From the IMG/VR virus record IMGVR_UViG_3300016469_000571, positions 1-64,000 of that record: 64,000 nucleotides of DNA, one strand, 5' to 3'. Made by a program: the position numbers and the translations under genes. Shown in pieces: positions 8,244-52,035 of this stretch. The stretch is from a virus. How positions within the stretch are numbered: the stretch's first letter is position 1; every line of letters starts with the position of its first letter. The notes below the pieces were generated by a model. That model worked only from the letters and a program-made list of their open reading frames with translations, searched no databases and was not told the DNA's origin.

Positions 8244-8563
8244 TAAGCACTCTTTAATTCATTTGTAATTTTTACACAAGTTTCTAAATCAACTGGATTT
8301 TTTCTTATTTGTTTGTTATTAAAGAATTTATGTATCTCTTGTAAAACAACCATCATTGTATTTTTAAAAAATATTGGATTACTAGAATTTATTTTACTAA
8401 ATGAATTTAGAATAGGACTAATTAAAACTTGATAATTTTCTCCATGAAGTAAATACATATCTTTATTAGCTTCAATAGAATTTACTAAATCGCTTAGCAT
8501 TGCATAGCAATTTTGTAGTTTTTGACTTGTATTTAATTCTTGAGCTATTTTTTTAAAAATCAT
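8243..8563 (-). CDS. Hypothetical protein (N-terminal KIAQ)
   Basis: 106-aa ORF in operon-like run. Confidence 0.6.
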   Translation of the reverse strand: MIFKKIAQELNTSQKLQNCYAMLSDLVNSIEANKDMYLLHGENYQVLISPILNSFSKINSSNPIFFKNTMMVVLQEIHKFFNNKQIRKNPVDLETCVKITNELKSA

Positions 8564-38383: not shown

Positions 38384-39031
38384 TTATGAAGAGCACATAA
38401 CACATGCTTCTGGATTATCTAAAGAACATGCAAGCTCTTCTTGATTTTGAAGCTGTTTATTTTTTAATTCATCTTCTATTTTTCTATCTACTGTGAATTT
38501 TTGAGCACCCTTGTTTTGAGTTCTAGTATAATACACAATTGTTTTCAATCCTTTTTTCCATCCATAAAAATAAGCCGAAGTTAGTTTTGCAAATGTAGGG
38601 TCTTTAAAATAAAGATTTAAAGATTGTGATTGACATATAAATGCACCACGATCAGCAGACATGTCTATTAATGTTTTTTGAGACATTTCCCATACTGTTT
38701 TGTATAAAGATTTTAAATTATCTGGTATTTCATCAATGTTTTGAATTGATCCCTCGGATGCAATAATTTTTTGTCTTATTGTATCATCCCATAAATTTAA
38801 ATCAATTAAATCATCTACTAGATATTTATTTATCATAATAAATTCTCCAGAAGAAGTTGATCTTTTATATAAATTGGATGTAATTGCTTCAAAACACTCT
38901 GTATTTCCCATGATTTGACTTGTATTATGAGAAACAACACCATTTGATAGCAAATATTGATGATTTTCATTCACTTCCAAATCCCATGTTGGAATCGCCT
39001 CTTGCAATTTTTTTATTGATTTTATTTTCAT
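38384..39031 (-). CDS. nrdA: RNR alpha part 3: split-intein C-half (36 aa) plus C-terminal extein (179 aa)
   Basis: MKIKSIKK...TWDLEV...NGVVSHN|TSQIMG; extein contains QSQSLN, YY radical-relay tyrosines and terminal CVMC; AAGGA Shine-Dalgarno. Confidence 0.92.
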
Positions 39032-39923
39032 ATTCAATTCCTTTTTTTAATAAGCTTTTATTTATTACTTCTAATGACTCTTCGTCTGTAAAACTTTCCC
39101 AAATTATATAATAATCAAAACCTTTAGATTCTGCTAAATCTTTTTTTTCTTTATCTAATAAGTATACGGCGTTTGCATCTAATTGAACTTCTTTTTTTGA
39201 AAAAGAAAATCTTTTCCATTCAGACCATTCTTTGGAATTTAACTTTGATGGATTTGGATGAAACTTTTCACCATTATACTCAATAATAATTTTTAAATCA
39301 GGTATAGTAAAATCGTAATAACTTAATCGCTTTTTTTCTTTATTATAAATATAATACTCTTTATTTTCTTTAAAACCAAAGAAATGTTTTATGTTTTTTT
39401 GTTTTAAAAAACAAGATAATGGCTCAAAATATCTTAAAGATTTTTTAGAGGCATTGCAAAACTGAACTTTTTTCTTATTTAAGATTTGTTCTACTTTTAC
39501 AATTGCCTCATCACTTGAATATCCTTTTTTTATCCAAAAATCTACTGATGATGTATTTAAATTTTTTTCATAAAATTCTTTTCTTTTTAATTCAGCCTCT
39601 TCTTTAGAAAATCCTTTATTTATCCAATAGCTAGAATTAAAAACAGTATTTTTAGATTTTTTATTTTTATATTCACTCCATTTTATTTTACCTAAATCAT
39701 GCCCATATTTTTCAATATATTTTTCCTCTGTATGTTTTGATGTGTTTTGAAAAAGTCTAAATTTTTTTAGACCTTCTTCTTCTCCATATTTTTTTATAAA
39801 ATTTTCTTTAGATGTTGCTTTAGATTTTTTATATTCTATTATTTTAATATTAGCCTCTTCTAAGCTAATATTATCTCTTTTTGAAATATAAATTGGATCA
39901 TAAACACTATTTTTAACTTTCAT
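38967..39923 (-). CDS. Free-standing homing endonuclease (Vsr/PD-(D/E)xK-like) between intein halves
   Basis: [22 protein letters not shown]...A...GF....IWE; N-terminal KYGEEEG and W..KG.S.EEA repeats; overlaps the IntC2 start. Confidence 0.75.
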
Positions 39924-39968
39924 AAAAGCTATATAGCATTATAGCTAACATCAATAAATAAAAAAAAA

Positions 39969-40949
39969 TTACACTGAAACTATCTCATCATTTTCTGTTA
40001 GTTCATCAACTCTTTTCCAAATCTCTCCATTTGTAGATTTTACTAACAATAAATGATTATTTGTAAATTTATATTTTTTACCATCTTCAAATTCTATTTC
40101 TATTACATCTTTGTATCCATTATAATGAATACCTGGAGATTTTTTTAGCCCATCTTTTGTTTGTACAAATACATCTTTTTCAAATGGAATTGTCATTTGC
40201 TGATCTATTTGTTCTATTCTTTTCCAATCTATATTTTGTTGATCCATTAAAGAATATAAGGAAATTGGATTAAAATTAGCATCTAATATTTCATTTTCTC
40301 CAGATTGGCAAGATGCTGTCGGCATTGGGGCTAATAATAAGCTATTTCTTAATCCATTTTCTTTTATTTTTTGTTTTAGTGAATCCCAATTGTACATTTC
40401 TGGTTCTACTCCCCACATATCAAATTGTAATATTCCTTGAGATGCAGGGCTTCCATCAAAAGTCTCATATTTTCCATTTTTTATAGCCAAATCACAAGAT
40501 GTGTTTAGGGCACTAAAATATATTGTTTCAAATATATTTTTATTTAATTCTTTTGCATTATCAGAATCAAATGGAAATTTCATTTTTGCAAAAACATCTG
40601 CTAATCCTTGAACTCCTAAACCAATTGGTCTATGTCTAAAATTAGATTTTTTTGCGGCTTCTGTTGGATAAAATCCAATATCTATTACTTTATTTAAATT
40701 TTCAACTAGTATTTTTGTTATTTCAGATAGTTTATTGAAATTAAAATATAAATTACCTTTCTTTCCAGAAAGGCAAGAAGGTAAAGATATTGACGCTAAT
40801 GTACATACGGCAGTTTCATCTGGAGTGGATACTTCAAAAATTTCAGTACAATTATGAACTAAAATATCATTTGCAAAAAAATTTGCAGATTCTTCGATAG
40901 TAAAATCATATACAGGTATTTCTTCTTCTAAAAATTCTATTTCTAACAT
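39969..40949 (-). CDS. nrdA: RNR alpha part 2: IntC1 (33 aa) + middle extein (180 aa) + IntN2 (113 aa)
   Basis: VYDFTI...NDILVHN|CTEI...AVCTLAS...RPIGLGVQG...LLAPMPTAS|CQSG...FTNNH; own GAGGA Shine-Dalgarno. Confidence 0.93.
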   Translation of the reverse strand: MLEIEFLEEEIPVYDFTIEESANFFANDILVHNCTEIFEVSTPDETAVCTLASISLPSCLSGKKGNLYFNFNKLSEITKILVENLNKVIDIGFYPTEAAKKSNFRHRPIGLGVQGLADVFAKMKFPFDSDNAKELNKNIFETIYFSALNTSCDLAIKNGKYETFDGSPASQGILQFDMWGVEPEMYNWDSLKQKIKENGLRNSLLLAPMPTASCQSGENEILDANFNPISLYSLMDQQNIDWKRIEQIDQQMTIPFEKDVFVQTKDGLKKSPGIHYNGYKDVIEIEFEDGKKYKFTNNHLLLVKSTNGEIWKRVDELTENDEIVSV

Positions 40950-41003
40950 TAATCCTCGTAAATATAATTTATTTTTATGTCACTTTGTTTATAATGGCTC
41001 AAA

Positions 41004-42593
41004 TCATGATAAAAGTAACACATCATCCTTATTTAAATATTGAGCCTCTACATAACCTCTATTTTTTGTATAGATTTTATGATCTGGGGTACATTTTAAT
41101 TCTTTCCCATTGTATTTTATTTTAATAACTTTAGATTTCTCACTTGTTAAGCAAGATTTTAATATTTTATTAAATTTTAGCTCATTTGTATTTTCATTAC
41201 AACTTAATATATATAAGTCTTGTGTTTTTAATAAATCATTTACCTCTTTCATTGAAAGAGTATACTCTTCCAAATCATTTGGATTTTTCTTTACTCTAAC
41301 CATTGCATTTCCATCAATACATAAATTCGAGCTTTTAATTATTCCAATATTTTTTTGATTTGATTTTATATTTCCAGAGTCTTTTGCTAATAAATATGGC
41401 TGACCAGTTTCAATACATGATTCTAATATTTTAGACCAAATATCTCTTGCTTTTACTTTTTTTACAAATTTATTTTCATTTTCATATTTTGTATATAATT
41501 TTTCAAAATCCTCTCCATATACATCAGATAAGCCTTTTGAAATATTAGGGTCCATCAAAGACCAATCATCATCACTCTCTACTCTTTTAAAGAATAAATC
41601 AGGAGCCCAAATAGCTAGATTTAAATCTCTAGCCCTTAACTCTTCCTTACCATTATTTTTTCTTAAATCTAAGAAATCCTCTATATCACAATGCCAAGGC
41701 TCTAAATATGCAGCAAATGCGCCTGGTCTTTTACCACCTTGATTAACATACCTAGCAGTCTCATTATATACTTTAAGCATTGGAATAATACCATTACTTG
41801 ATCCACCAGTACCATATATATGGCTGCCTTTTGATCTAACATCGTGAATATGAAAACCAATTCCGCCAGATGATTTTGATATCTTCGCAACTTCTTTTAA
41901 AGTATCAAAAATACCAGATATAGAATCTTCTTTATTTGCTATTAAATAGCATGAGTTTAATTGATTTTGAACAGTACCAGCATTGAACAATGTTGGTGTC
42001 GCATGAGTTGCTTCCAATTTTGACAATAAATTATATGTATTTAAGCAAGCATCAATATCATCAAAATGAATACCACAAGCCACCCTCATCCACAAATGTT
42101 GAGGTCTCTCAACTATTTTATTGTCAATTTTTTGTAAATAACTTTTTTGTAAAGTTTTAAAACCAAAGTAATCAAACAAAAAATCTCTATTGTAATCAAT
42201 AGCACTATCCAAAACATGAGAGTGCTTTTTAACAAATTTAATTACATCATTAGAAATGAACTGTATTTTATTTCCATGAATATCTTGTTTATATGATAGC
42301 TTTTCAATTACATTTGAAAATGTACTATCTGTGTCTTTATGCAATCTAGTTATCTCTAATCTTAAATCTAGCTTATCATATTCTGGATTTTTTATTGACA
42401 TAGAATATGCAGTTTCTATTGCTAGAGAATCTAACTCTATTGTAGTAACACCATCAAATAAACCACCAATGACTTTTTGAGAAATATAATAAGCATCAAC
42501 GTTTTTTAAATCTTTTGATTGTCTTTGAATTCTTTTTAAAATCTTATCAAATTTTACAGTTTCTTTTTGTCCATTTCTTTTAACAACAAACAT
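41004..42593 (-). CDS. nrdA: RNR alpha part 1: ATP cone and N-extein (424 aa) plus IntN1 (105 aa)
   Basis: VVKRNG ATP cone, ATPTLFNAG, NSCY, GGIG, QGGKRPGA, ETGQPY, KSSNL|CIDG...CTPDHK. Confidence 0.95.
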   Translation of the reverse strand: MFVVKRNGQKETVKFDKILKRIQRQSKDLKNVDAYYISQKVIGGLFDGVTTIELDSLAIETAYSMSIKNPEYDKLDLRLEITRLHKDTDSTFSNVIEKLSYKQDIHGNKIQFISNDVIKFVKKHSHVLDSAIDYNRDFLFDYFGFKTLQKSYLQKIDNKIVERPQHLWMRVACGIHFDDIDACLNTYNLLSKLEATHATPTLFNAGTVQNQLNSCYLIANKEDSISGIFDTLKEVAKISKSSGGIGFHIHDVRSKGSHIYGTGGSSNGIIPMLKVYNETARYVNQGGKRPGAFAAYLEPWHCDIEDFLDLRKNNGKEELRARDLNLAIWAPDLFFKRVESDDDWSLMDPNISKGLSDVYGEDFEKLYTKYENENKFVKKVKARDIWSKILESCIETGQPYLLAKDSGNIKSNQKNIGIIKSSNLCIDGNAMVRVKKNPNDLEEYTLSMKEVNDLLKTQDLYILSCNENTNELKFNKILKSCLTSEKSKVIKIKYNGKELKCTPDHKIYTKNRGYVEAQYLNKDDVLLLS

Positions 42594-47215: not shown

Positions 47216-47757
47216 ACAACCCTTGACAAAAATGATAAATCAAGATTTAATAACTTTATTTTTTCACAGTCGCTAGACTGTGACTGCATCATAAAGGCTA
47301 AATCACCATATGTCAAAATATTTTCATTTATAGTTTTAATTTTATTTATTAATTTTTCTGGTAATCTAGTAGCTCTATCTATTGTAGATAGTGTTTGATT
47401 TCTTAAATGTCTTGTTTTAAAATCTTTTAAAGAATACTCATTTGTTAAAAAACTAATTGATGTCAATCTTCTTTTAGATTTTTTAACTTTGTTTTCAAAA
47501 ATCCAATCAATATAATCTTTAAGAATAATTGGATCAGATGATAAGTTTATACATAACTTATTTATTTGAAAAACTTCAAAAGATTTAGATGGCTGTGGTG
47601 CATTGAACTTAAATTCATATTCAATATTATATTGGTCTTTGTACTTTTTACAAAAATAAGCCAATACACCTGTTTTTGACCAATTCTTACAATCAGTATT
47701 TTCTATCTCTATAAATTTTTCAAAAAACTTTTCATAATTTAAATTTGGAGCTTTCAT
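47212..47757 (-). CDS. Hypothetical protein in the replication module
   Basis: 181 aa with ATGA overlaps. Confidence 0.6.
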   Translation of the reverse strand: MKAPNLNYEKFFEKFIEIENTDCKNWSKTGVLAYFCKKYKDQYNIEYEFKFNAPQPSKSFEVFQINKLCINLSSDPIILKDYIDWIFENKVKKSKRRLTSISFLTNEYSLKDFKTRHLRNQTLSTIDRATRLPEKLINKIKTINENILTYGDLAFMMQSQSSDCEKIKLLNLDLSFLSRVV

Positions 47758-50435
47758 TTTCCTAATATCTTAAACCCTTCCTCTTCTGTATAAGTTTGAT
47801 ACCTAATCAATGAATGCTTATCTAAAAACCTAGTATTGTCCATAAAATCTATGACAGCTACTTTTGTTTTATCTTTATAAGCTCTAACAACTCGACCTAT
47901 TCTTTGCAAAGCTCTTATTTTAGATTTACCTCCACCACCTAAAACTAATCCAGATAATTTTGGCAAATCCATTCCAATATCAAATATTGTGCTCGCAATA
48001 ATACAATCTATATTATCATCATTTAATGCTTGCTTTATTTCATTTCTCTTTTCAAGAGAATCGTTTCCATAAAGCAATTCACATCTTATTCCTTCATTTA
48101 AAAACTCTTTGTATAAAATCTTACCATGCTCTATTGTTTTAAATAAAACCAATGGTTTGTATTTTTTCTCTATTAAAGATTTTGTATTTTTAACTATTAA
48201 AGCATTTCTAATGTCATTATTTACTATATATTCTTTATAAACTTCTTGAAATGTTCTTGCTTGTATTGTTTGGTGTGGAACATTTACAAATTTTATAATA
48301 GGCTGAGCTAAAATACCTTTTTCAATTAATTCTGTAGCAGATACATTGCAAATAATTCTACCAAGCATTGCTTCTGTAAGCAAATCACTACCATCATCTC
48401 TAAATGGCGTTCCTGATAATCCATATATTCTTTCTGGATCTATATATTTATAGATTTGTTGTAATGTCTCACAAGTACATGCATGACATTCGTCTATAAT
48501 ATGAACTTTTGCTTCTTTTAAGCATTTAAGAATTTTAAATTTGTCTTGTATCTTTGGTGGAAGTTCTCTAACAGTTTCATCGTCTATTGTTAGTGATGCT
48601 TTTTTTACCTCTAATGCAGATCCTATTGTCCAAACAGATGCTATTGTTAATCTTTTAGGATTGCAAATACCATTTCCTATCCATCCTATTTCTTCTTTAA
48701 AGATTTTTGAAAATAAATCGTGAAATTGCTGAAGAAGATCAAGACCTATTACATAGATTATAGTAGGCTTGTTAAATTCTTTTGTCATATAAGCAGAAAT
48801 TAAAGTATTATGATTTATAAATCCATTAGAAACAAAACTATGAGTCTCTGGTATGCAAAAATCATAATTATCAGACATTACTTTTTCTATATTAGAAACT
48901 TTTAAAAAAATCTTATCTTTTATAAGACTTTTAATTTCATTAACTTTTTCACTCTCTTCACAACTATCTAAATAATTCTCTAAATTTTTTTTAGATGGAT
49001 TTCTATAAATACCCCAAGATTTAATAGTTTTTGTTTTTTTAAATCCTAACTTTAATTTAGTATTTTTTATATTTGTTTTTTGAAATGGAATGCAATTAAC
49101 ATTTGGGTTAATATTTCTAATTTTAGAAATTATTTTTTTTATTTTATACCCATTTGGGTCTAAACCAATTTCATTCATAAATTTTGGAATGAATTCATTG
49201 TATATGCTTAATATAAAACAATCATTTCTTTTTGTTCTTTTTATTCTTTTTGAAGAAACAATTCCAAAATTTAATAAAATTGTTTGAATTTGATTTATTA
49301 AATTTTCATTAGACAAACCAACACATATTGCATTTGATTCTACCCAACCATCAGTCTCATATATTCCTCTTATAAACATAGCAAGAGGTTCTTTTTTTAA
49401 CATTCTTATGCTTTTAGGAATTTCTTTATTTATAGACTTAGAATATTTAAAACCATAATCATATAATTTTTTCCTATATGACGCCGAGTTTATAATTAGA
49501 TTTTTTGCTTTTGACTTTGTATCACAAATTTTGTGTTTTATATTTATTTTATTTAAATAATTAGATGCAAAATCTAATATATGTTGATCCATATTTGTTA
49601 AAACAACTCTGTTTTTAACGCTTAAACCACCATCACCCATAAGAAGTCCATACCAATAAGCCTCATCTAAGTCTAGATCATTAGATCCATACATTTGGGT
49701 ATTGTATGATATAGCAACATAATCTTCTTTTGATATTTCAGATAATTTTTTCCAATCTAATTGACCATTACCATTTATTACTTTAATTTTATGATTTAAA
49801 GTACCAGTTATTGAAAACCCATATCTTGTGGTAATTTTAATAGATTCAGAAACTCCATCATAATAAAAATGAGACGTAATGTCTTTGTTATTATTTGTTA
49901 AAGGTGTGGCAAGGTTAAGGTTAAGCTTTATGCTTTCTTTTTCTTTTATATTTAAATTAAAGATATTTTTTAATTCTTCAAAAGAAAGTATTCCTTTTTC
50001 TGTAATATTCAAAGAATTCTTTGATATACACTTACCGCTGCCAGTAGCTGCTCTAACTATTCCTATATTGGTTTGCTTGCATGTATCAACAATTTTTTGC
50101 TGATAATCTCTTAAATTATATCCAATATCATTGACAATTAATTCTGGCTCAATTGTTGGTACTTTTCTTTTATCTTCAATTGTATAATCAATTGAATTCT
50201 TTTCTAGAAATTCTTTTACTTTTACAAGTAAGCCGATTTGAAATTCATTTTTTTTATTTAATAATCTTGTAACTCCGTCCCATCCATTTTTATATGCTTG
50301 TGTATATTCAACACCTAATTGTTTGTAGGATAATAAATTTGAAATTCTCTTCATAAGAATTTCGTCATCAGACTCTATTTTACAAGATTTGTTATTTTTA
50401 ATTACTATCTTCATCGCTATAAAAATATAGCGCAT
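47754..50435 (-). CDS. SF2 DExH helicase (UvsW/XPB-like) containing a cis intein
   Basis: LRDYQ, ATGSGK|T, IDECH, SGTP, QRIGRVVR; the true start may be 50414. Confidence 0.9.
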   Translation of the reverse strand: MRYIFIAMKIVIKNNKSCKIESDDEILMKRISNLLSYKQLGVEYTQAYKNGWDGVTRLLNKKNEFQIGLLVKVKEFLEKNSIDYTIEDKRKVPTIEPELIVNDIGYNLRDYQQKIVDTCKQTNIGIVRAATGSGKCISKNSLNITEKGILSFEELKNIFNLNIKEKESIKLNLNLATPLTNNNKDITSHFYYDGVSESIKITTRYGFSITGTLNHKIKVINGNGQLDWKKLSEISKEDYVAISYNTQMYGSNDLDLDEAYWYGLLMGDGGLSVKNRVVLTNMDQHILDFASNYLNKINIKHKICDTKSKAKNLIINSASYRKKLYDYGFKYSKSINKEIPKSIRMLKKEPLAMFIRGIYETDGWVESNAICVGLSNENLINQIQTILLNFGIVSSKRIKRTKRNDCFILSIYNEFIPKFMNEIGLDPNGYKIKKIISKIRNINPNVNCIPFQKTNIKNTKLKLGFKKTKTIKSWGIYRNPSKKNLENYLDSCEESEKVNEIKSLIKDKIFLKVSNIEKVMSDNYDFCIPETHSFVSNGFINHNTLISAYMTKEFNKPTIIYVIGLDLLQQFHDLFSKIFKEEIGWIGNGICNPKRLTIASVWTIGSALEVKKASLTIDDETVRELPPKIQDKFKILKCLKEAKVHIIDECHACTCETLQQIYKYIDPERIYGLSGTPFRDDGSDLLTEAMLGRIICNVSATELIEKGILAQPIIKFVNVPHQTIQARTFQEVYKEYIVNNDIRNALIVKNTKSLIEKKYKPLVLFKTIEHGKILYKEFLNEGIRCELLYGNDSLEKRNEIKQALNDDNIDCIIASTIFDIGMDLPKLSGLVLGGGGKSKIRALQRIGRVVRAYKDKTKVAVIDFMDNTRFLDKHSLIRYQTYTEEEGFKILGK
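48807..50030 (-). mobile_element. Full-length intein (408 aa) with LAGLIDADG endonuclease, inserted in Walker A
   Basis: CISKNS...GTLNH...YGLLMGDG...IRGIYETDG...YDFCIP...GFINHN|T. Confidence 0.93.
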
Positions 50436-50447
50436 GTACTAGAATTG

Positions 50448-50777
50448 TCAATAAAACATCAAATATACTTCAAATTTATTAATATTGTTAATATAAATTT
50501 TGTCAAAGCTTTCAAAATATTTTTTAATATGATCAATGTCTTTTGTTTCTAAAATTTTATTTTCTATTTCTAGTAAATCATTTTTTGTACAACCAAGCTC
50601 AATTAAGGTATTAACAACTGATCTTACTAAATAAGTATTTGCGATTTGTAAACCGATCTTTTTTAAAGATTCTATATCTTTAAATTTTTTCTTAGAATTT
50701 TCTTTTAACAAAGTATCAGTAAATATATCAATACTTGATATTACTAGTTTATTTTCTTTTGTCGATAACATTTCCAA
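50448..50777 (-). CDS. Hypothetical protein (C-terminal EVYLMFY)
   Basis: 109-aa ORF. Confidence 0.55.
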   Translation of the reverse strand: MEMLSTKENKLVISSIDIFTDTLLKENSKKKFKDIESLKKIGLQIANTYLVRSVVNTLIELGCTKNDLLEIENKILETKDIDHIKKYFESFDKIYINNINKFEVYLMFY

Positions 50778-52035
50778 CTAACTTTCCAAAAGCAGAGTTC
50801 TTTTGAGCGATTTGTTCTTTTATTCTTTGCGCAGCAGAAACATTCTGTTCTTTACCAGAATCAAATGTAAGATTTAAATTCCTTCTATCTTCTTTTTCTT
50901 TAACTTTTTGCATTTGTAAGCTAACTTCTTTTTTCAAAGAATTAATCCTTGAATCTGGTAAGCTTAATCCAGAAAAGAAAGAATATACTTTTACATTATC
51001 TTCATTTGAATCAATTGTATAAATGCCTTTAAATATCCCAACAGGACTAGAGCATTGTTCATTTATCATTGCCATTGCATAATTAACACTTGCTGATGTA
51101 ATCTTATCCATTACTGCTTTATTTCCAGCTATGATAACACCAACATATTTGGCATCTTTAATATCAAAACCTTCTGCCAACATATTAGAAGTTAAATTTG
51201 AAATAACTGCTTCTGCAATTGCAGTTGGTTGTTCATAGTTTGATATAGTTAGCTCTCCATAAATAGATAAACCATCTCCATCTGTTAAAATTCTTGCCCA
51301 CTCTGTTGGATCTAATGGTTTTACACTAGATGGCATGGAAGATAAAGTATTAAATACATCAATTGGATTTGCTATAATTTTATTTGCTTGATTAAAAAAG
51401 TCAAGTTGGCTTACATTATGTAATAGCGCTTCTATTTTAGCATTATCAACAACAATTAAATTTGAAATCTTTTTTTGCTGAACTAATTTTGTTAGTTTTG
51501 ATAATGTGTCTAAAGAATTGGATTTTGTTTGAACATCATCAGATTCCATTGGCAATATTGCCATTACTACAATAGGTTTTCCTATGTCTGACAATACGTC
51601 AATTAATGTTAAACAAGAACCAGCACCAGAGCCTCCACCCAAACTAAAACATAATACATTTACTTCGCTAGCATCAAGCTTTGATAGTAGTTTTACTATT
51701 TGATCTTTATTAGACTCTGCTGCCTCTGAACCTATTAGCAAATCTTTTGCAGCACCACCTAGCCCATAATTTAGTAAAAGCTTATTCTGATCTGGAACCT
51801 CTATAAATTTAAGATCTTGCTGTGCTGTATTAATACATACAACATCATATCCTAACTTATAATAAACTTCAGCTAATCTTCCTCCACCTTGACCAGAGCC
51901 AATAAACCCTAAATTAATAGAACGCTCTTTTTTCTTTTTTACTTTGTTTTTTAACATGGCAAGAGTTTCTGAATCTATCTGTAAATCATCAATAATTGTT
52001 TCTTTTGCTTTTTCTTCTATAGAATTTTTAATCAT
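50749..52035 (-). CDS. Tubulin/FtsZ-family GTPase (PhuZ/TubZ-like)
   Basis: GSGQGGGR, INT..QDL, GAAKD, GGGSGAG signature, VVDN. Confidence 0.88.
   Translation of the reverse strand: MIKNSIEEKAKETIIDDLQIDSETLAMLKNKVKKKKERSINLGFIGSGQGGGRLAEVYYKLGYDVVCINTAQQDLKFIEVPDQNKLLLNYGLGGAAKDLLIGSEAAESNKDQIVKLLSKLDASEVNVLCFSLGGGSGAGSCLTLIDVLSDIGKPIVVMAILPMESDDVQTKSNSLDTLSKLTKLVQQKKISNLIVVDNAKIEALLHNVSQLDFFNQANKIIANPIDVFNTLSSMPSSVKPLDPTEWARILTDGDGLSIYGELTISNYEQPTAIAEAVISNLTSNMLAEGFDIKDAKYVGVIIAGNKAVMDKITSASVNYAMAMINEQCSSPVGIFKGIYTIDSNEDNVKVYSFFSGLSLPDSRINSLKKEVSLQMQKVKEKEDRRNLNLTFDSGKEQNVSAAQRIKEQIAQKNSAFGKLVGNVIDKRK

Follow-up and report, generated by a model that had tools for sequence, protein, structure and literature searches.

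How does a protein that is encoded in three pieces, with a split intein at each break, come to be assembled in the right order? This question is raised by the first 64,000 nucleotides of the virus record IMGVR_UViG_3300016469_000571 from IMG/VR (this whole stretch is called the window below). In the window, the class Ia nrdA gene, for the ribonucleotide reductase (RNR) large subunit, consists of three open reading frames (ORFs) with two split inteins between them. The N- and C-terminal halves of intein 1 (IntN1 and IntC1) are opposite in charge polarity to those of intein 2 (IntN2 and IntC2). A first-pass annotation of the DNA had proposed that this polarity makes the two inteins a co-evolved orthogonal pair and guards the middle piece against self-circularisation. 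We suggest instead that NrdA is probably joined from its three pieces by two unrelated split inteins, that their opposite polarity was inherited, and that specificity comes mainly from the divergence of the two inteins.

A ribonucleotide reductase gene in three pieces

The three nrdA ORFs are on the minus strand in the same order as in the protein, and real stop codons separate them (42593..41004, 40949..39969 and 39031..38384). Their exteins are colinear, without loss or overlap, and cover positions 2-213, 212-392 and 392-523 of PF02867 over parts 1, 2 and 3, respectively. All three frames are open and ribosome-binding sites are present. Three in-frame stops (TGA, TAA and TGA) lie in the 54-bp spacer that separates part 1 from part 2, with a GAGGA ribosome-binding site 5 nt before the ATG of part 2. 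The most likely start of part 3 is the ATG at 39031, behind an AAGGA ribosome-binding site; the TTG at 39037 would add 2 amino acids (aa).

Splicing motifs are intact in both inteins, namely C1, CTPDH, VHN and a +1 Cys in intein 1, and C1, FTNNH, SHN and a +1 Thr in intein 2. Intein 1 is inserted between SSNL and CTEI, immediately before the thiyl-radical Cys. Intein 2 is inserted between PMPTAS and TSQ, so that its C-extein begins with TSQIMGN. With separate same-strand ORFs in order, colinear exteins and these motifs, both have the features of naturally split inteins. Matches to PF14890 are found on all three pieces, though the curated cut-off is exceeded on part 2 only. The closest solved relative of intein 1 is NrdJ-1 (PDB 8UBS; IntN1 residues 23-104, E 4.7e-11 by phmmer), and this significant sequence similarity places intein 1 in the NrdJ-1-like family. 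For intein 2, no close solved relative was found in the PDB.

There is no endonuclease gene between the halves of intein 1, which are separated by the 54-bp spacer only. Such tight, endonuclease-free junctions recur in relatives (e.g. the loci L182, L207/L218 and L160), and endonuclease loss from fractured genes therefore looks common. Between the halves of intein 2 is a free-standing ORF of 318 aa, which is a putative homing endonuclease. It has no match in Pfam or the PDB, and matches only PHROG 22677 (function unknown). Klebsiella phage KP13-7 has an ORF in the corresponding place; the two ORFs share an N-terminal module (36% identity over 56 aa), and their C-terminal parts differ. This suggests that a common DNA-binding module may have been joined to different nuclease domains.

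Charges of the two inteins

The electrostatics of split inteins sit on two long antiparallel strands, the pre-block-B strand of IntN and the N-terminal strand of IntC (PMC2677866). The same docking strands are named beta3 (IntN) and beta6 (IntC) in 10.1101/546465. In every natural split intein examined, the strand charges were reported to be complementary (PMC2677866). We assigned the strands by homology to NrdJ-1, gp41-1 and Npu DnaE, following these two papers.

The residue counts of the first-pass annotation are exact. IntC1 has 9 acidic residues (D/E) and no basic ones (K/R), IntN1 has 15 D/E and 18 K/R, and IntN2 has 21 D/E and 13 K/R. The distal half of IntN1 is basic as described, with a net charge of +5 (the proximal half has -2). 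The basic start that was noted for IntC2 is real for MKIKSIKK and does not extend to the whole of IntC2, in which 4 D/E and 4 K/R give a net charge of 0. On the docking strands the opposite polarity of the two inteins is confirmed, with +4 (N1) and -5 (C1) in intein 1 against -1 (N2) and +2 (C2) in intein 2. The contrast is clear for intein 1 and weak for intein 2. By the same strand charges, both non-cognate pairs are like-charged as had been claimed, that is, IntN2 with IntC1 on the middle piece and IntN1 with IntC2. Complementary cognate strands and like-charged non-cognate strands are the pattern of a charge-based orthogonal pair, with a weak effect for intein 2.

The strongest like-charge combination, IntC1 (-9) and IntN2 (-8), is on one chain, since part 2 indeed has the IntC-extein-IntN topology that was first recognised in it. 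Compared with the composition of the window proteome (long ORFs), the probability of finding no K/R in 33 aa is 0.011 and that of finding at least 9 D/E is 0.015. Thus, the acidity of IntC1 is not compositional noise.

Charge types in the intein 1 family

Scans of IMG/VR seeded with IntC1 and IntC2 yielded about 160 further loci. Loci are cited here by L numbers. Among 53 unique IntN/IntC pairs of the intein 1 family, the net charges of the N- and C-strands are correlated with r = -0.88, a clade-structured value that comes down to 1 independent contrast on well-supported branches. By sign, 17 pairs are N+/C-, 17 are N0/C-, 17 are N-/C+ and 2 are N-/C-, and none is N+/C+. This correlation fits a model of electrostatic docking, and two charge types can be defined by it. 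Intein 1, with +4 and -5, does not have the N-/C+ polarity of NrdJ-1. Since both charge types occur in the NrdJ-1-like family, polarity does not define it. A position-by-position matrix of charge covariation points to positions 2, 5 and 7 of the N-strand against positions 5-10 of the C-strand. Since clade structure confounds this matrix, we did not use it as a contact map.

The acidic-IntC type makes up 45 of 65 unique sequences of the intein 1 family in this sample, which was drawn by likeness to the window. As this type is common, the polarity difference between the two inteins of the window is unsurprising. At least 15 distinct RNR loci with a single split carry the acidic strand (MLKIEYLEEEIP and variants); in one acidic-type locus, L009, site 2 is uninterrupted and reads APMPTASTAQILG. 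The same strand is found in contiguous mini-inteins, in which the N and C parts are in one ORF (L096, L117, L120-L126). A rough tree, poorly resolved with 82-109 alignment columns, places the window among the singly split and contiguous acidic-type sequences. The proposed co-evolution finds no support here: an acidic IntC1 with a basic-to-neutral IntN1 is common to many singly split and contiguous inteins, and the acidic type is not associated with the gain of a second split intein. At that gain, the charge type is unchanged in about 2.5 of 3 independent contrasts, which are too few for a test.

Near-identical acidic-type inteins are split in L095/L097, where the halves are about 1 kb apart, room enough for an endonuclease gene. 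Contiguous counterparts are found on other IMG/VR contigs (L096/L117/L121-L126), where about 9 aa separate the N and C parts within a single ORF. This suggests that there may have been recent switching between the split and contiguous states.

Polarity in other three-piece genes

Natural three-piece genes do not generally have opposite polarity. A search of a protein collection with part 2 returned dozens of full-length IntC1-extein-IntN2 middle pieces, some of them on contigs of 250-565 kb. Among 35 distinct middle pieces from metagenomes, the IntC1 strand is basic and the IntN2 strand acidic in 31, 4 are neutral/acidic and none is acidic/acidic. In the commonest arrangement, therefore, charge-complementary non-cognate halves are on one chain, and cyclisation must be avoided in some other way. 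Ten distinct double-split loci have all or most of their halves readable. Four of them have opposite polarity (the window, L004, L090 with an anomalous IntN2, and L182), five have the same polarity in both inteins (KP13-7, L005, L008, L225 and L228) and one is neutral (L190).

The guard is more likely to be sequence divergence. IntN1 and IntN2 have no BLAST similarity (E 0.81), and IntC1 and IntC2 are 32% identical. Because no similarity between IntN1 and IntN2 can be detected, orthogonality is predicted by divergence alone. Mutual orthogonality was observed for 15 of 16 different split inteins in a published 24 x 24 matrix (PMC7090010), and a beta3/beta6 charge swap alone failed to stop cross-splicing in Npu DnaE (10.1101/546465). 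Thus, polarity as the guard of the middle piece is not supported, on two grounds: by charge alone, IntC1 and IntN2 should attract each other in 31 of the 35 pieces, and the inteins are in any case too divergent for cross-reaction to be expected.

The two insertion sites and intein families of the window are also present in cultured phages. In KP13-7 (Alcyoneusvirus, OP617745; L003:956-6486), three breaks divide nrdA into four pieces. The first break comes with an HNH gene and is not at an intein; the other two split both inteins, and GIY-YIG and HNH-type ORFs separate their halves. The inner nrdA pieces of this phage were deposited as hypothetical proteins. In the Campylobacter phages CPt10 and IBB_35, intein 1 is split and intein 2 is contiguous. 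A class II RNR (NrdJ-like, ...FGTNPC|C...) is likewise in three pieces at L004:3393-6906, with the same two intein families. The strand region of its intein 2 (VIEIEFEDGKKYKFT; IntC2 MKIKSIKK) is near-identical to that of the window, and an HNH-type ORF is between the halves. Thus, class I and class II RNRs host the same intein lineages at homologous sites.

At L090:7001-8995, the second half of the IntN on the middle piece is unlike the intein 2 family. A separate ORF of 85 aa (8259-8516), directly before IntC2, holds only the C-terminal two-thirds of a family 2 IntN. This arrangement may be an intein replacement or a nested remnant.

Proposed mechanism and alternatives

We propose that the cognate halves of each intein would dock through their two antiparallel beta-strands of complementary charge and fold into a HINT domain, as expected from the homology to NrdJ-1, gp41-1 and Npu DnaE. 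Two trans-splicing reactions would then make a continuous NrdA of about 747 aa from the three exteins. Since the +1 residue of intein 1 provides the active-site Cys, unspliced pieces should be inactive. Intein 1 belongs to the widespread acidic-IntC type of singly split and contiguous RNR inteins, and intein 2 to a family that is nearly always acidic-IntN/basic-IntC; the opposite polarity would thus be inherited. The order of assembly, without cyclisation or exon skipping, would follow mainly from the deep sequence divergence of the two inteins. Like-charge repulsion between non-cognate halves is plausibly an extra kinetic barrier at this locus. It probably adds to specificity, and is neither required for it nor shown to have been selected. 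The charge pattern looks like a by-product of the lineage that invaded site 1, not a co-evolved device.

Several points weigh against this explanation. The charges of the window are the most extreme of their group, with an IntC1 without any K/R and an N1 strand of +4. Charge can matter, since in one case, an engineered NpuDnaB intein, Beyer et al. 2019 (10.1101/546465) found charge engineering to be enough to make halves orthogonal. The relatives were sampled by sequence likeness to the window and by what IMG/VR contains, which makes the proportions rough, and the strand-charge correlation has the clade structure described above.

The alternative that survives best is adaptation, in which the charges of intein 1 were selected, or the pair co-evolved, and repulsion on the middle piece blocks both exon skipping and a cyclisation like that of the engineered SICLOPPS system. 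We consider this unlikely. It would account for the like charge of both non-cognate pairs, with the strongest repulsion on one chain, and for the place of the window at the extreme of its charge type. L004, L090 and L182 likewise pair an acidic IntC1 with an acidic-N intein 2, and cross-reactivity can be reduced by engineered charge swaps (10.1101/546465). However, the acidic type is common where there is no second split intein, also in contiguous inteins, and most of the few independent contrasts show no change of charge type when the second intein is gained. IntC1 and IntN2 are charge-complementary on one chain in five double-split lineages as well as in the 31 metagenomic middle pieces, and the two inteins are already too divergent for cross-reaction to be expected.

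It is also rather improbable that the charges of intein 1 were sharpened after the second split intein arrived, through the loss of all K/R from IntC1 and a Lys-rich IntN1 strand. Were this true, the window would hold a naturally optimised, fully orthogonal tandem pair. The NrdJ-1-like family would then be a natural charge-swapped series, in which strand electrostatics set the choice of partner in vivo.

Another alternative is that the pieces are never joined covalently, either because decayed intein halves serve as non-covalent docking tags, as in the split NrdA of Aeh1, or because the gene is dead. The locus is evolving, given that split 1 has lost its endonuclease gene and retains the 54-bp spacer, and nrdA genes split without inteins exist (PMC3045599; pieces A and B of KP13-7). 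We nevertheless regard this as very unlikely, because all catalytic motifs (Cys1, TxxH, HN and the +1 nucleophile) are intact in both inteins, and the three ORFs are open with ribosome-binding sites. Without splicing, split 1 would leave the active-site loop nicked just ahead of the radical Cys, which the enzyme is unlikely to tolerate, and the arrangement is conserved in dozens of relatives.

That the charge pattern is meaningless, a result of drift in an AT-rich and Lys/Glu-rich proteome, is hardly credible, for though the genome has about 26% G+C and IntC2 is neutral overall, the composition of IntC1 is improbable for this proteome, strand charges are complementary in all but 2 of the 53 intein 1 family pairs, and such complementarity was reported for every natural split intein examined (PMC2677866).

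Features of the locus and neighbouring genes

The source record is a virus record of 94.5 kb, estimated by CheckV to be 22% complete, and the genome is AT-rich. Other phage genes in the window encode replication and structural proteins, among them a DnaB-type helicase and fibre-like proteins. A third intein of the record is contiguous and full-length, has a LAGLIDADG domain, and is inside a UvsW-like helicase. The window also encodes a tubulin/FtsZ-family protein; its TubZ-like tubulin is consistent with a large (jumbo-type) phage. The coordinates of all features are collected in Table 1.

Table 1. Positions of the nrdA pieces, intein halves, docking strands and other features in the window
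Feature	Position	Strand	Length	Remarks
nrdA part 1	41004..42593	-	529 aa	ATP-cone, all-alpha domain, RNR barrel start, IntN1 at end; Pfam PF03477, PF00317, PF02867, PF14890
IntN1	41007..41321	-	105 aa	NrdJ-1-like; Cys1 after ...KSSNL; block B CTPDH
IntN1 docking strand	41094..41141	-		EKSKVIKIKYNGKELK; net +4; aligned to the acidic NAELVELEIDTLHGVK strand of NrdJ-1
Spacer between parts 1 and 2	40950..41003	-	54 bp	
nrdA part 2	39969..40949	-	326 aa	IntC1, 180-aa extein, IntN2
IntC1	40851..40949	-	33 aa	Ends ...ILVHN; +1 residue is Cys of CTEI
IntC1 docking strand	40914..40949	-		MLEIEFLEEEIP; net -5
IntN2	39972..40310	-	113 aa	Net -8; Cys1 after ...APMPTAS; block B FTNNH
IntN2 docking strand	40068..40115	-		YKDVIEIEFEDGKKYK; net -1 (core VIEIEFED -4)
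Free-standing ORF, putative homing endonuclease	38967..39923	-	318 aa	Between intein 2 halves; end overlaps start of part 3
nrdA part 3	38384..39031	-		IntC2, then barrel positions 392-523
IntC2	38924..39031	-	36 aa	MKIKSIKK...VVSHN; +1 Thr; net 0
IntC2 docking strand	38990..39025	-		Net +2 (first 8 residues of IntC2 +4)
UvsW-like helicase	47754-50435	-	893 aa	Intein-interrupted; UvsW_N, ResIII, Helicase_C
Tubulin/FtsZ-family protein	50749-52035	-	428 aa	TubZ-like C-terminal domain

Implications

To ligate three fragments by tandem trans-splicing, two split inteins without cross-reaction are required, and many phage RNR genes already hold such pairs. The window locus and its relatives are ready-made pairs that evolved together in one protein. 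Opposite- and same-polarity pairs, and acidic and basic types within one family, provide a natural comparison for the role of strand charge in specificity. For annotation, the finding means that three- and four-piece nrdA genes are present in deposited phage genomes as hypothetical proteins, e.g. in KP13-7. The claim of an evolved anti-cyclisation device does not stand, which leaves only modest practical novelty. There are already many orthogonal pairs of split inteins. Both polarities (Dassa et al. 2009), complementary strand charges, the NrdA insertion site and orthogonality by charge swapping (Beyer et al. 2019) are already published. Our search of the open-access literature turned up no account of a natural gene that carries two split inteins, which does not prove its absence, nor one of two charge types in the NrdJ-1-like family.

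Comparison with known systems

Fractured genes, in which a split intein is combined with a free-standing homing endonuclease gene, were described by Dassa et al. 2009 (PMC2677866) for NrdA-1 to -7 and NrdJ-1/-2, and NrdJ-1 and NrdA-2 are listed there as N-negative/C-positive. The window locus has the same order on one strand (N-extein-IntN, putative endonuclease ORF, IntC-C-extein) and the same NrdA insertion point directly before the thiyl-radical Cys. It differs in that split 1 is without an endonuclease gene, that its intein at the NrdA site is opposite in polarity to NrdA-2, and that two split inteins divide one gene into three pieces, a case that we did not find in that paper.

With NrdJ-1 (PDB 8UBS / 9OMB), intein 1 shares the N-half motif CTPDH.(V/I)YTKNRGYV and the C-half motif NFFANDILVHN. 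However, the NrdJ-1 strand is acidic (ELVELEID) and its polarity is N-/C+, whereas intein 1 is N+/C- and is thus a natural charge-swapped relative. The hosts differ as well, being a class I NrdA with a +1 Cys in the window and a class II NrdJ with a +1 Ser for NrdJ-1. The nrdA genes of KP13-7 and of CPt10 / IBB_35 have the same insertion sites and intein families as the window. Unlike those of the window, the two inteins in KP13-7 and in CPt10 share the N-/C+ polarity, and KP13-7 has an extra, non-intein break that makes four pieces.

The middle piece of the window has the IntC-extein-IntN order of SICLOPPS. SICLOPPS uses both halves of one intein, whereas the halves on part 2 come from different families. 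Because these two inteins are divergent, cyclisation is not the expected outcome, whatever the charge. Finally, charge-swapped inteins engineered for orthogonal ligation or for joining three fragments (Beyer et al. 2019, 10.1101/546465, and ref. 23 therein) share with the window the idea of beta3/beta6 charge reversal for one-pot orthogonality. The engineered pairs were derived from one intein, whereas those of the window are two unrelated natural inteins.

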